Part shown: positions 27,905 through 43,649 of the stretch, piece after piece
How positions within the stretch are numbered: position 1 is the stretch's first letter
How the letters are laid out: each line of letters opens with the position of its first letter
Source of the DNA: Escherichia coli
GTDB taxonomy: Bacteria > Pseudomonadota > Gammaproteobacteria > Enterobacterales > Enterobacteriaceae
Assembly: GCF_024502345.1 (NCBI RefSeq)
Contig: NZ_JALDNN010000001.1
Reading direction: 5' to 3' (one strand)
DNA length: 64,000 bases
The notes under the pieces: model-generated
Told to the model about the DNA's origin: nothing
Seen by the model: only the letters and a program-made list of their open reading frames with translations
Database searches by the model: none
Translations under genes and position numbers: made by a program

Positions 27905-28015
27905 TTAATTTGATCGCCCGAACAGGAATGTTTGGGCGATTTTTATTACGATAATAAAGTCTGTTTTTAATATTATCATGTTAAATGTTTATATTATAAA
28001 AAGTCGTTTTTCTGC

Positions 28016-28035
28016 TTAGGATTTTGTTATTTAAA
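28016..28035 (+). promoter_or_regulatory. GAD box (GadE/GadX/GadW operator) in gadA promoter
   Basis: ttaggattttgttatttaaa matches the 20-bp gad box as I recall it. Confidence 0.7.
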
Positions 28036-28114
28036 TTAAGCCTGTAATGCCTTGCTTCCATTGCGGATAAATCCTACTTTTTTATTGCCTTCAAATAAAT
28101 TTAAGGAGTTCGAA

Positions 28115-29517
28115 ATGGACCAGAAGCTGTTAACGGATTTCCGCTCAGAACTACTCGATTCACGTTTTGGCGCAAAGGCCATTTCTACTATCGCGGAGTC
28201 AAAACGATTTCCGCTGCACGAAATGCGCGATGATGTCGCATTTCAGATTATCAATGATGAATTATATCTTGATGGCAACGCTCGTCAGAACCTGGCCACT
28301 TTCTGCCAGACCTGGGACGACGAAAACGTCCATAAATTGATGGATTTGTCGATCAATAAAAACTGGATCGACAAAGAAGAATATCCGCAATCCGCAGCCA
28401 TCGACCTGCGTTGCGTAAATATGGTTGCCGATCTGTGGCATGCGCCTGCGCCGCGAAAAATGGTCAGGCCGTTGGCACCAACACCATTGGTTCTTCCGAG
28501 GCCTGTATGCTCGGCGGGATGGCGATGAAATGGCGTTGGCGCAAGCGTATGGAAGCTGCAGGCAAACCAACGGATAAACCAAACCTGGTGTGCGGTCCGG
28601 TGCAAATCTGCTGGCATAAATTCGCTCGCTACTGGGATGTGGAGCTGCGCGAGATCCCTATGCGCCCCGGTCAGTTGTTTATGGACCCGAAACGCATGAT
28701 TGAAGCCTGCGACGAAAACACCATCGGCGTGGTGCCGACTTTCGGCGTGACCTACACCGGTAACTATGAGTTCCCGCAACCGCTGCACGATGCACTGGAT
28801 AAATTCCAGGCCGACACCGGTATCGACATCGACATGCACATCGACGCTGCCAGCGGTGGCTTCCTGGCACCGTTCGTCGCCCCGGATATCGTCTGGGACT
28901 TCCGCCTGCCGCGTGTGAAATCGATCAGTGCTTCAGGCCACAAATTCGGTCTGGCTCCGCTGGGCTGCGGCTGGGTTATCTGGCGTGACGAAGAAGCGCT
29001 GCCGCAGGAGCTGGTGTTCAACGTTGACTACCTCGGTGGTCAGATTGGTACTTTCGCCATCAACTTCTCCCGCCCGGCGGGTCAGGTAATTGCACAGTAC
29101 TATGAATTCCTGCGCCTCGGTCGTGAAGGCTACACCAAAGTACAGAACGCCTCTTACCAGGTTGCCGCTTATCTGGCGGATGAAATCGCCAAACTGGGGC
29201 CGTATGAGTTCATCTGTACCGGTCGCCCGGACGAAGGCATTCCGGCGGTTTGCTTCAAACTCAAAGATGGTGAAGATCCGGGATACACCCTGTACGACCT
29301 CTCTGAACGTCTGCGTCTGCGCGGCTGGCAGGTTCCGGCCTTCACTCTCGGCGGTGAAGCCACCGACATCGTGGTGATGCGCATTATGTGTCGTCGCGGC
29401 TTCGAAATGGACTTTGCTGAACTGTTGCTGGAAGACTACAAAGCCTCCCTGAAATATCTCAGCGATCACCCGAAACTGCAGGGTATTGCCCAGCAGAACA
29501 GCTTTAAACACACCTGA
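28115..29517 (+). pseudogene. gadA: Glutamate decarboxylase A, disrupted by a 2-bp insertion after codon 113
   Basis: ORF 28052-28528 matches GadA through ...DLWHAPAP then goes out of frame; ORF 28411-29517 carries [17 protein letters not shown]... to the GadA C-terminus in the +2 frame; the extra CG lies at 28454-28455. Confidence 0.85.
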
Positions 29518-29534
29518 TAACATAACGTTGTAAA

Positions 29535-29578
29535 AACCGAATGCCCAGCCTTTAAAAAAAACAGCTGGGCATTCGGTT
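29535..29578 (+). terminator. Rho-independent terminator after gadA
   Basis: aaccgaatgcccagc...gctgggcattcggtt perfect hairpin. Confidence 0.75.
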
Positions 29579-29887
29579 GCTTATTAATCGCAATAATATA
29601 TTGGCTGTCTATTCATCGTGTTGATAAGATATATGTTATATGAATGTTTATTAAATGTAGCGATTACCTTTAATGTCACGACAAGGGATTATTTGCTTAC
29701 TATTAATTTCCCTGCGTTCTTAAATACGTTTTTGTATTATAAATCCAGTCATCCTGCCCGTAGAACATCACACATTATCATCCTGTTCTCCCGCTTCGTT
29801 TAAATTTATTTATCAATCAATTTGACTTAAGAGGGCGGCGTGCTACATTAATAAACAGTAATATGTTTATGTAATATTAAGTCAACT

Positions 29888-40443: not shown

Positions 40444-40484
40444 TCTGTGTGGCAGCGTAGCCAGACTCACCGTAAGCCTGAAAT

Positions 40485-41015
40485 TCACACCAGATAATCA
40501 ATATGCTGATGGCGTACCAGCTCATTGATCCGCTTAAGATTGAGGATCATCATGATATTGTGTTTATGGCAGTAGAACGTTTTTAGCGATATTTTCAGTT
40601 TCTCCAGAATATCTTCCGTTGTCATTTGATTCGCAATGCAGCTCAGAACCTGATGTTGCTTGCGCGAAAGTGACACAGCCGCTTCAGGCACAGAGCAGTA
40701 ACTGCCATTGATGAGTGCGACAAAATCAATGATAGTGATAGTCCGCGGAACAAAGGTCACCGGCACTTTCCCCAGGCAGCGTTTAATATTAAAGGGGGAG
40801 AAAATAATCACATGGACAGGTTTTAATCGTTCAATTTGAGTGAGAAAATTAGAATGAAATACATTATTCATTAATGTATCAATAATGACGAAGGCATTCT
40901 GATGCAACATTACGTCGATCTCTTCTTCGTTCTGTATATGAACGACATTACCTTTACTCAGAATGTTTTTCATCGCGGTGAAGAACATCGTATCCCTGGT
41001 AATTATAAGAAACAT
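40485..41015 (-). CDS. dctR: LuxR-family regulator
   Basis: 176 aa with C-terminal LuxR HTH. Confidence 0.9.
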   Translation of the reverse strand: MFLIITRDTMFFTAMKNILSKGNVVHIQNEEEIDVMLHQNAFVIIDTLMNNVFHSNFLTQIERLKPVHVIIFSPFNIKRCLGKVPVTFVPRTITIIDFVALINGSYCSVPEAAVSLSRKQHQVLSCIANQMTTEDILEKLKISLKTFYCHKHNIMMILNLKRINELVRHQHIDYLV

Positions 41016-41170
41016 AACCGACTCCTGGTGCGGACATTAACTTTATAATCAGTTTGCCAAAGGTAATTAACAGGACAGGGCTTATAATAATAATAGTTAG
41101 CTTACTGTATATTAATTTTATGTAATACATGATGCAGATGCTGAGAAAGCATCTGCATCTTTCGGTGGTG

Positions 41171-41737
41171 TTATTTGACCAGCTCAGGTGTTACCTGACT
41201 CACCGCATTGGTGTAGTAAGGCGCACCCCAGCCCGGTTCCGGCCAGAATGCACCATAGCCGTAATCCCACAGGTTATAGGTGGTATTAACCACTTCTCTC
41301 AAATGCCACACCTGGATGCCCTGCATATTCACTTCCAGGAAGTTATACGGGACTTTATTGATAAAGCCTGGTTGTTCACCCTGAATGGTACCGAGGATGG
41401 TAACAAAGTGATTACGATAGTTCACTGGATCAAGGAAGCCGCTTTGTCTGGCGAGCAGTCGGCCCTGATAGTTGGCTTCAATATCAGGCTTCGCATAGCT
41501 ATCCAACGGTAATACAGCGATTTCTAACAACGTATCCGTTTTGCCATTGATAACGTTGATAACCTTCCCACCAAAGCGCGCTTGTTGACCAACATATAAC
41601 CCCGGCTGGTTATGAACAGCAACAAAACTTTTTTGAATATCAGGTTGGTTATTGCCTTTGATATTTTGCGGAATTGAACTACATGCGGCAAGCAAAAATG
41701 AAAGGCTGAGGATGAGTGCACCTTTTGTCATGTTCAT
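41171..41737 (-). CDS. slp: Starvation-inducible outer-membrane lipoprotein
   Basis: 188 aa from MNMTKGALILSLSFLLAACSS (lipobox). Confidence 0.92.
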   Translation of the reverse strand: MNMTKGALILSLSFLLAACSSIPQNIKGNNQPDIQKSFVAVHNQPGLYVGQQARFGGKVINVINGKTDTLLEIAVLPLDSYAKPDIEANYQGRLLARQSGFLDPVNYRNHFVTILGTIQGEQPGFINKVPYNFLEVNMQGIQVWHLREVVNTTYNLWDYGYGAFWPEPGWGAPYYTNAVSQVTPELVK

Positions 41738-41983
41738 GTTACTATCCTTATCAACAAATATTAAAACCATAATAGATATTTCTTTATAGTTTTCATCTGA
41801 TTCTGAGGTGATATGCCTGATAGTAACGTAAACCTGTCTGATGTTTATATCCCTTCTGTTTAGTTCAATTCCGTTATTTTGGGGCGTGGTATGAGTATCC
41901 ATCGCCCAATAATATAACCCTTTGTTTTAAAATTACATAAAATCTATTTTTATTCAATGATTATAAAGTGCTAATAATCAATA

Positions 41984-43207
41984 TTATGGTATTATATTCT
42001 GATAATGATTTGATAAGCGAATTCTTTTGCCAGATGGTATTTCTATTTCCACCCCATAATTTATATCTTTTTCATTAGGCAGATCTCTCTTTAAATAAAA
42101 GGGGTATGAAATCTTTTCGGGTTGAAGTGTCTCGTAATGAAATGCTATGAATTCATTTTTAGACATTGTTGCCCATTTTTGAATTTTATTGTATAGAGAG
42201 GGTGTTGTAAACTCTTGAAGTTGTTTATAACATATTTTTTTGAACTCTTGCTTATATTTTAATATGTCATCAAATGAAAGATTCACTACCTTTGCCTCTA
42301 AGAAATCAATTATTCTCGAAGCAATTTCCGCTTTCGCGCGTAAAGAGTTGTCATTAATAGTTAACAATGTAGAAAACAAGCCATTGATTTGTTTGTCAAG
42401 ATGCTGTTCATATTTATGTAGTTTGGGGATGGGATTTTCCTTGTGTGAAAAAATAGTGTTAAATAAATTTGCGTCAGTGAAATTTATATTAAGTAGATCT
42501 TCAAAATAAAAATTTGATAAGGTTAGGACTAGCCTGGACATATCTTGCCCTGTCATGTTGAAATCAATAAAGTCGCATCCAGCAAGGGCTTCCATCCTAT
42601 TTTCATTTTCACTGTGCTCAATATACAGCTTCGCCATTTTTAAGTACAAGCTTTGAATGTCTCTTATATCAGTTGGTAAGTCAGCTCGTTGCCCAGCAAA
42701 ATTTTTATTATCGGAAGAAACGGTTTGGACACTGAATCTTTCGGGTATTCCTTCTTCTACGAGAATTTTAGTTATGATTGGATTGTTGGGTTCTGGATTA
42801 ACGACAACAATGATTTGACATACAGAATCCTTATCCTTTTCGTATCTAATGTTATGAATCTGATTAAGTATTGATTGTGTCTGTTGCGTAAGTGGTGTCG
42901 AACTTATCGTTTCAATGTTATTAATAAGACTTACAAGTTGAACCACAACTTTTGAGTAGTCTGCATTTGTATATGTGGTGTTCGTGTGGCATGCATTAAT
43001 TTGTTGGAGTTGTTGTTGCGCTAAATCAAATTGTTCAGGGTTGTATCCTTCTCCAGAGAATGTGGAATTAATGGGTTGTTGTTCTTCCCAATTATCACAA
43101 GGCCACTTCGGTGTGTCTGGCGTTTTAACATTATCGGTATTTGTTGTGCAGTTATAAATATCGCCGTGATATGTATTTATTATACCTGGGGTAAAGTCAA
43201 TTGACAT
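41984..43207 (-). CDS. yhiS: Uncharacterised 407-aa protein, intact (interrupted by IS5 in the K-12 reference, from memory)
   Basis: Uninterrupted AT-rich ORF between slp and arsC with N/Q/S-rich low-complexity N-terminus; no domain recognised by eye. Confidence 0.6.
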
Positions 43208-43649
43208 AACATTCCTTATTCATCATCTGTTTTATGCTAAGGTTTTTAAATTGGATAATTAGAACAGGAATGGATTTTCTTCTACACACAATAAATATAA
43301 TGCGTTATATCTTCCTGATATAATTACCTTTAAATTCCCTTTCATTTCCACCCGGTAATATTTGTGTATAAAAAAAAGGGCAGTGATAGTATCGTAAAGG
43401 AAAACGTTAACAACTATCAAAAAGCGCTCATTTTAAAAAGTTATTATGTTCTCTGATAGTGTGTGAAATGATATTTTTGTGATGTTTTAGGTGTGTAATA
43501 ATAAAATGGGTTAAGGTATCTTATAATTATTTAATAATTTGTTGTGTAAATCACTGATAAATCATAATCCAGTACGTCTTTAAACTACTGCACTGTATCG
43601 CTGATAACTAAGCAGCTCACTGATACACCATGCTGGACGCGATAATTGG

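Follow-up and report, generated by a model that had tools for sequence, protein, structure and literature searches.

A very probable short-form acid fitness island in Escherichia coli: gadA is frameshifted and the neighbouring yhiS uninterrupted

The acid fitness island (AFI) of Escherichia coli extends from slp to gadA over about 15 kb and encodes 12 proteins and one small RNA (sRNA) (PMC2887963, PMC5799925). In K-12 MG1655 it corresponds to b3506-b3517, while the long form described for E. coli O157:H7, Shigella dysenteriae and E. albertii carries, on the same backbone, the chu/shu haem-uptake genes (PMC5799925). The gadA and gadX genes form an operon and the GAD box is the binding site of the GadE/RcsB heterodimer (PMC2887963); H-NS is listed among the gad regulators and provides an input to the GadEWX network (PMC4918353), and a study of H-NS describes its binding, the formation of a hairpin-like structure at hdeAB and, when hns is mutated, a derepression of 15- to 75-fold (bioRxiv 10.64898/2026.02.10.705075). 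The interval discussed here, positions 27905-43600, lies in a 64,000-nucleotide stretch of E. coli DNA (the window; contig NZ_JALDNN010000001.1 of assembly GCF_024502345.1). Judged from its sequence, it is very probably the chromosomal AFI in the short, K-12-like form devoid of the chu/shu insertion. This AFI is already known and is among the best-studied stress loci of E. coli; the strain-specific features, a two-base insertion which breaks gadA and an uninterrupted yhiS next door, are minor.

Positions 23694-42459 of the window are collinear, free of rearrangement, with K-12 MG1655 3,653,238-3,672,000 (98.6% identity; nine small gaps in the alignment), and the genes from slp to gadA, taken one by one, are 98.2-100% identical to those of K-12. 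All twelve AFI genes (slp, dctR, yhiD, hdeB, hdeA, hdeD, gadE, mdtE, mdtF, gadW, gadX and gadA) are present in canonical order and orientation, and all except gadA are full-length open reading frames (ORFs). The ORF listing combined with family scans gives the order gadA-gadX-gadY-gadW-mdtFE-gadF-gadE-arrS-hdeD-hdeAB-yhiD-dctR-slp. Upstream of gadA, on the plus strand at 28016-28035, a GAD box matches the 20-bp sequence TTAGGATTTTGTTATTTAAA exactly; it is unique in the window when up to three mismatches are allowed, with none expected by chance. On the left the interval is bordered by ccp (yhjA), which ends at 27904, with treF beyond it, and on the right by arsCBR and gor, with arsC at 43836-44261; this position between ccp(yhjA)/treF and arsRBC/gor is the canonical AFI site. 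Genes, order, orientation, the sRNAs gadY, arrS and gadF, the GAD box and the flanks are thus all as in K-12, and the differences are the two-base frameshift in gadA and yhiS, which is intact here and split by an IS5 in K-12. Taken together, the collinearity, the near-identity to K-12, the sRNAs and the exact GAD box argue that this locus is the canonical AFI. The gap between yhiD and dctR measures only 41 bp, so that the haem locus of the long form is absent. By megablast with the whole interval, the region was found in 5,425 of 5,426 complete E. coli genomes, and in 3,178 of these 5,425 a single piece covered 80% or more of the query, which is consistent with the short form being common. Due to the +2 frameshift in gadA the full set of functional effectors is lacking, which makes this a degraded copy of the AFI and not a different island.

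The preliminary description of this DNA had already named the block as the canonical AFI, with the genes ordered from gadA to slp, gadY, two AraC-type regulators, a frameshifted gadA and an intact yhiS, and in all of this it stands. It had also put yhiS in brackets as a neighbour, in agreement with the published limits: as the AFI ends at slp, yhiS is adjacent to the island and not a member of it. Its count of three LuxR-type regulators was one too high, since inside the interval the Pfam domain GerE (PF00196) is found only in GadE (E=6e-6) and DctR (E=3e-9). The third regulator, YhjB (GerE E=3e-22), is encoded at 23800-24402, 3.5 kb outside the interval and beyond treF and ccp, and yhjB is not part of the published AFI.

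The working of the island is taken from the K-12 literature and carried over by near-identity, on the strength of which the island should work as it does in K-12. In growing cells at neutral pH, H-NS would coat and repress the AT-rich promoter and regulator segments. In stationary phase or in acid, RpoS, EvgA-YdeO and the AraC-type regulators GadX and GadW would switch on gadE, and the LuxR-type GadE, as a heterodimer with RcsB, would then bind the GAD box and turn on gadA, together with gadBC located elsewhere. The same heterodimer would also activate hdeAB-yhiD, hdeD, slp-dctR and mdtEF. GadY, which is antisense to the 3' end of gadX and is said, in work by Opdyke from 2004 (cited in PMC4918353), to act on the gadX mRNA, would stabilise this transcript; ArrS and GadF are further sRNAs encoded in the island. 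Among the effectors, GadA would consume protons, HdeA and HdeB would protect periplasmic proteins, and MdtEF, Slp and YhiD would export metabolites.

The base composition of the interval differs from that of its surroundings, with 44.1% GC against 52.0% in the left and 52.3% in the right flank (Mann-Whitney test on 200-bp windows inside and outside, p=2e-8). This difference is not evenly distributed. gadA has 54.5% GC and 60% GC at third codon positions (GC3), like the flanks, and mdtF and mdtE, with 53-54% GC and a GC3 of 62%, are indistinguishable from treF, arsB or gor, whereas the regulator genes of the island range from 33 to 42% GC. Without gadA and mdtEF the interval amounts to 9.8 kb at 38.9% GC. 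Segmentation returned two AT-rich blocks, 29301-32250 (41.0% GC) and 36551-43900 (38.8% GC); leaving aside the yhiL/yhiJ region at the right end, the window has no longer ones. The island is therefore a composition mosaic, in which AT-rich regulator and chaperone modules alternate with the GC-normal gadA and mdtEF. The preliminary description had called the entire block markedly AT-rich and had proposed a GC profile as check; the profile does set the interval apart from its flanks, but the statement does not extend to gadA and mdtEF. Its mention of long AT-rich intergenic regions was correct, such stretches measuring 798, 628, 370, 254, 246, 242 and 210 bp at 29-36% GC. They include those between gadE and hdeD (798 bp, 36% GC), yhiS and arsC (628 bp, 35%), gadA and gadX (370 bp, 33%) and ccp and gadA (210 bp, 29%). 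The yhiS-arsC spacer (43208-43835, 34.9% GC) forms the right-hand compositional border, GC rising to 52% at arsC. Windows of 50 bp with at least 70% AT make up 13-20% of the AT-rich blocks versus 1.3-1.5% of the flanks, a figure which serves as a sequence proxy for H-NS only. The density of the H-NS 10-mer TCGATAAATT was uninformative and highest in gadA.

Some of these data weigh against taking the interval simply as an AT-rich AFI that behaves as in K-12. The label of AT-rich island fits only about 10 of the 15.7 kb, gadA and mdtEF not being AT-rich. The best match of the gor-dtpB core flank among the 5,426 complete E. coli genomes has 99.0% identity; the window is only about 99% identical to the best complete genome, which points to a lineage unsampled in that set and in which regulatory differences would be possible. 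Furthermore, gadB and gadC are located outside the window, so that compensation by gadB is assumed, and H-NS occupancy, transcription and the acid-resistance phenotype are those expected by analogy with K-12.

For the origin of the island, a scan for Slp in species-representative genomes provided 14 loci. Six other Escherichia genomes of species level (E. albertii, E. whittamii, Escherichia sp. E1V33, sp. MOD1-EC7003, "E. coli" E69 and SCPM-O-B-8794) have gor or ars immediately next to the AFI. None of the six has a detectable yhiS beside the AFI (no tblastn hit at E<1e-3), which indicates that yhiS arrived separately. Three of the six (loci L018-L020) have about 9 kb between dctR and hdeB/yhiD, an insert that corresponds to the chu/shu haem locus (PMC5799925). 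In seven Citrobacter species (L023-L029, at about 10001-17400 in each), including C. braakii, C. youngae, C. portucalensis, C. werkmanii and C. amalonaticus, slp is followed directly by mdtE-mdtF, the products being 76-81% (Slp), 74-77% (MdtE) and 86-87% (MdtF) identical to those of the window. Next after mdtF, most of the Citrobacter loci carry HdeA/B-family (hdeB-like) and DUF308 (HdeD-family) genes; in C. braakii, the sole Citrobacter locus whose downstream genes were checked against Pfam, a YfdX-family gene then follows. In distinction to the AFI, the Citrobacter cluster contains no gadA, gadX, gadW, gadY, gadE, dctR, yhiD or hdeA, slp abuts mdtE, and the chromosomal site is a different one, with neither gor nor prlC nearby. 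This slp-mdtEF cluster may be a compact relative, or a precursor, of part of the AFI.

The GC mosaic and the Citrobacter cluster argue for a composite island rather than a single AT-rich import. We tentatively propose, as one possible history, an older GC-normal acid-envelope core of slp-mdtEF-hdeB/D, kept compact in Citrobacter, which in Escherichia would have gained the AT-rich modules dctR-yhiD-hdeA, gadE and gadXYW as well as a copy of gadA, and later, in E. coli only, yhiS; in this history yhiS would perhaps be diversifying and the gadA allele perhaps shuffled. The idea of a composite island is not new in kind. The classical xenogeneic reading, by which the entire interval came in through one horizontal transfer as a single foreign, AT-rich island, appears rather unlikely. 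It agrees with the report that the AFI was gained once, after E. fergusonii had branched off (PMC5799925), and with an overall GC content 8 points under that of the flanks. It is at odds with the native-like gadA and mdtEF (GC 54%, GC3 60-62%) next to regulators of 33-42% GC, and with the absence of yhiS beside the AFI in the six other Escherichia genomes. The Citrobacter slp-mdtEF cluster, being free of the AFI regulators, also speaks against it and agrees with a GC-normal core that predates the AT-rich additions. The mosaic composition and the Citrobacter cluster illustrate, in a modest way, that island borders drawn from composition only can mislead.

The neighbour of the island, yhiS (41984-43207, minus strand, 33.9% GC), is an intact ORF for 407 amino acids in the ORF listing. 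Homologues, 71-99% identical in protein, are found in E. coli or Shigella only. With respect to K-12 the gene is 83-89% identical in nucleotides and 79% in protein, and its non-synonymous (dN) and synonymous (dS) divergences are 0.118 and 0.284, a ratio of 0.42 that greatly exceeds the one in neighbouring genes. Eight of nine control genes compared in the same way had a dN of at most 0.009 and a dS of 0.04-0.12, the exception being arsR (dN 0.026, dS 0.32). Among the complete-genome records an allele at least 95% identical is present in 435, and one of 80-95% identity in 4,991. No Pfam or NCBIfam family matches YhiS, and a full HMMER search of its profile against 1.84 billion representative proteins recovered one full-length cluster and its fragments. 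yhiS is thus a hypervariable, lineage-restricted ORFan at the edge of the island, and it may perhaps be under diversifying selection.

Searches for remote relatives of YhiS gave weak matches. Residues ~204-280 show weak, multi-stretch HMMER matches to pentapeptide-repeat proteins (E=1e-8 to 1e-4), and residues ~203-256 a weak match to the Rfr protein 2f3l in a profile search of the PDB (E=0.007). The Pfam Pentapeptide model (PF00805) scored 12.5 bits (E=0.11), below its cut-off of 20.2, and YhiS was not classified as a pentapeptide-repeat protein. The AlphaFold2 model, built with 18 alleles, was poor, with a mean predicted local distance difference test score of 46.7 and values near 70-80 only for residues ~80-205; Foldseek found no match to it in the PDB at E<=0.001, and no fold was assigned. 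That YhiS might be the relic of a type III effector like PipB2/EspX was considered and dropped. Identity to K-12 is about 95.6% from yhiS rightwards versus 98.6% to the left, a drop which suggests a recombination boundary at yhiS. An IS5 99.6% identical to the copy that interrupts yhiS in K-12 is present at 58170-59377, between yhiN and yhiM.

The glutamate decarboxylase gene gadA (28115-29517, plus strand) is a frameshifted pseudogene. Alignment to intact gadA locates an inserted CG at 28452-28453, after codon 112, by which GCGCCG becomes GCGCCGCG; the wild-type letters for 28447-28459 are GCGCCGAAAAA, and the insertion-bearing version within 28440-28465 reads GCGCCGCGAAAAA. A premature stop follows at 28526-28528, so that the gene is split into a 137-amino-acid N-terminal product and an out-of-frame remainder of 336/368 amino acids, this C-terminal piece still matching TIGR01788 (E=1e-162). 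The promoter, the GAD box, the downstream sequence and gadX are otherwise intact. In the GadA/GadB structure, loss of the first 129 residues would remove the N-terminal domain and part of the pyridoxal phosphate-binding domain, and gadA is for this reason taken as null. Glutamate-dependent acid resistance would then have to depend on gadB. With one of two glutamate decarboxylase genes dead, acid resistance may be lowered or the co-transcription of gadAX altered. Phase variation at the insertion was discarded, the repeat being no more than (CG)2, and a literature search for a gadA frameshift described in Shigella or E. coli found nothing.

The insertion is a real allele. It is absent from all 5,426 complete RefSeq E. 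coli genomes, and the best identity of an 81-nucleotide probe was 97.5% in all 5,430 records. The 30-mer spanning it, CATGCGCCTGCGCCGCGAAAAATGGTCAGG, and the exact 137-amino-acid product were recovered at the gadA locus from seven ENA metagenome assemblies, independent of one another, and from a single Logan run. ccp is found upstream in each of these, and gadX downstream wherever the contig reaches far enough. This recurrence in at least eight independent public assemblies shows that the insertion is not an artefact. A sequencing or assembly error in an intact gene, for which the absence from the complete genomes and the intact gadA of L003 (GCA_050022275.1), the nearest public relative of the locus, could be quoted, is very improbable, given that the identical 30-mer and product come from different assemblers and that a two-base CG duplication is atypical for homopolymer error. 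L003 shows three differences over 8.8 kb, the inserted bases accounting for two of them, and within gadA it is set apart solely by the missing insertion; this near-identity with an intact gadA indicates that the inactivation is recent on this haplotype. Very improbable, too, is that a useful level of GadA is made through a -1 slip of the ribosome, with tRNA-Lys re-pairing on the run of A's behind the insertion and one extra Arg in the product, for although CGA AAA ATG can be read as A AAA AAT (28452-28462) with perfect re-pairing of AAA, and the native frame would be regained ahead of any stop codon, the run has only five A's, the canonical X XXY YYZ heptamer is absent, slippage at such sites is typically at most ~1%, selection for a slippage context is without support, and we know of no downstream stimulatory structure, which was not looked for here.

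In the public assemblies compared (L002, L004 and L009-L015) the insertion was seen in at least eight of human-gut or other origin, on at least three downstream gadA haplotypes. When presence or absence of the insertion is combined with the downstream haplotype (28602-28941), all four gametes are observed, which implies recombination or recurrence at the insertion, with the caveat that metagenome assemblies may be chimeric. The obvious candidate suggested for such shuffling is gene conversion between gadA and gadB, and the frameshifted allele may perhaps be a standing polymorphism shuffled in this way. The allele circulates in human-gut E. coli, while it is missing from every complete RefSeq genome.

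The two AraC-type regulators were identified by the Pfam models HTH_AraC and HTH_18. gadX (29888-30712, plus strand; E=4e-21) is 98.2% identical to K-12 in nucleotides, and its exact protein sequence is E. coli RefSeq WP_256632701.1, present on four contigs; gadW (31080-31808, plus strand; E=2e-13) is 99.2% identical to K-12. Between them, on the minus strand and antisense to the 3' end of gadX, is gadY (30724-30837), a full-length match to Rfam RF00122 with 150 bits against a gathering score of 45 and 100% identical to K-12 over 30729-30834. The RND efflux pump genes mdtF (32171-35284) and mdtE (35309-36466), both on the minus strand, are 99.1-99.2% identical to K-12 and bear the annotation mdtEF in a closely matching E. 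coli sequence. They are followed on the same strand by the sRNA gadF (36616-36706), which derives from the 3' untranslated region (UTR) of gadE, is 98.9% identical to K-12 gadF and belongs to Rfam family ES205 (RF02754, 101 bits at 36616-36687). A 98-amino-acid ORF on the plus strand (36508-36804), antisense to gadF and the gadE 3' UTR, bears the label "hypothetical protein" in the RefSeq genome of a relative; as no NCBIfam model matches it, it is listed here as a probably spurious ORF.

The gene of the LuxR/GerE-type master activator, gadE (36805-37332, minus strand), has 32.6% GC and is 99.6% identical to K-12. Its upstream regulatory region (37333-38130, 36.2% GC) contains the antisense sRNA arrS on the plus strand (37644-37713), 100% identical to K-12, and is 98.7-99.3% identical outside arrS. 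Beyond it lie hdeD (38131-38703, minus strand; Pfam DUF308, 98.6% identity to K-12), encoding an acid-resistance membrane protein, and the genes of the periplasmic acid chaperones, hdeA (38958-39290, plus strand; 100%) and hdeB (39406-39732, plus strand; 99.4%), both of the Pfam HdeA family. They are followed by yhiD (39796-40443, plus strand; Pfam MgtC, 99.2%) for an MgtC-family membrane protein. The LuxR/GerE-type regulator gene dctR (yhiF; 40485-41015, minus strand) is 99.8% identical to K-12, and slp (41171-41737, minus strand; Pfam Slp, 99.5%), which encodes an outer-membrane lipoprotein, forms the canonical distal end of the AFI.

Elsewhere in the window, a complete 768-bp IS1 (8360-9127, within 7299-10013) links a yhjV truncated at its 5' end to what is left of bcsC, the final 294 codons. 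In K-12 its place is taken by 14.2 kb (3,686,587-3,700,773) containing most of bcsC, bcsZBAQ, bcsR, bcsEFG, ldrD/rdlD and the start of yhjV, so that the cellulose synthesis locus is deleted; the junction is covered to at least 80% in only one of the 5,426 complete E. coli genomes. To the right of the island, arsR (in 45617-46850) is unusually divergent from K-12, with 92% nucleotide identity and a dS of 0.32. AgrB-family sRNA matches are located at 46121-46204 and 46355-46439 and dinQ at 46714-46797, the agrA-agrB spacer being only 80.5% identical to K-12. Further on, a 557-amino-acid ORF at 60989-62662 (DUF6860 and DUF4049) corresponds to yhiL, annotated as a pseudogene in K-12 and apparently intact here; the block in which it lies has 36% GC, and its alignment to K-12 shows 35 gaps and an identity of only 93.4%.

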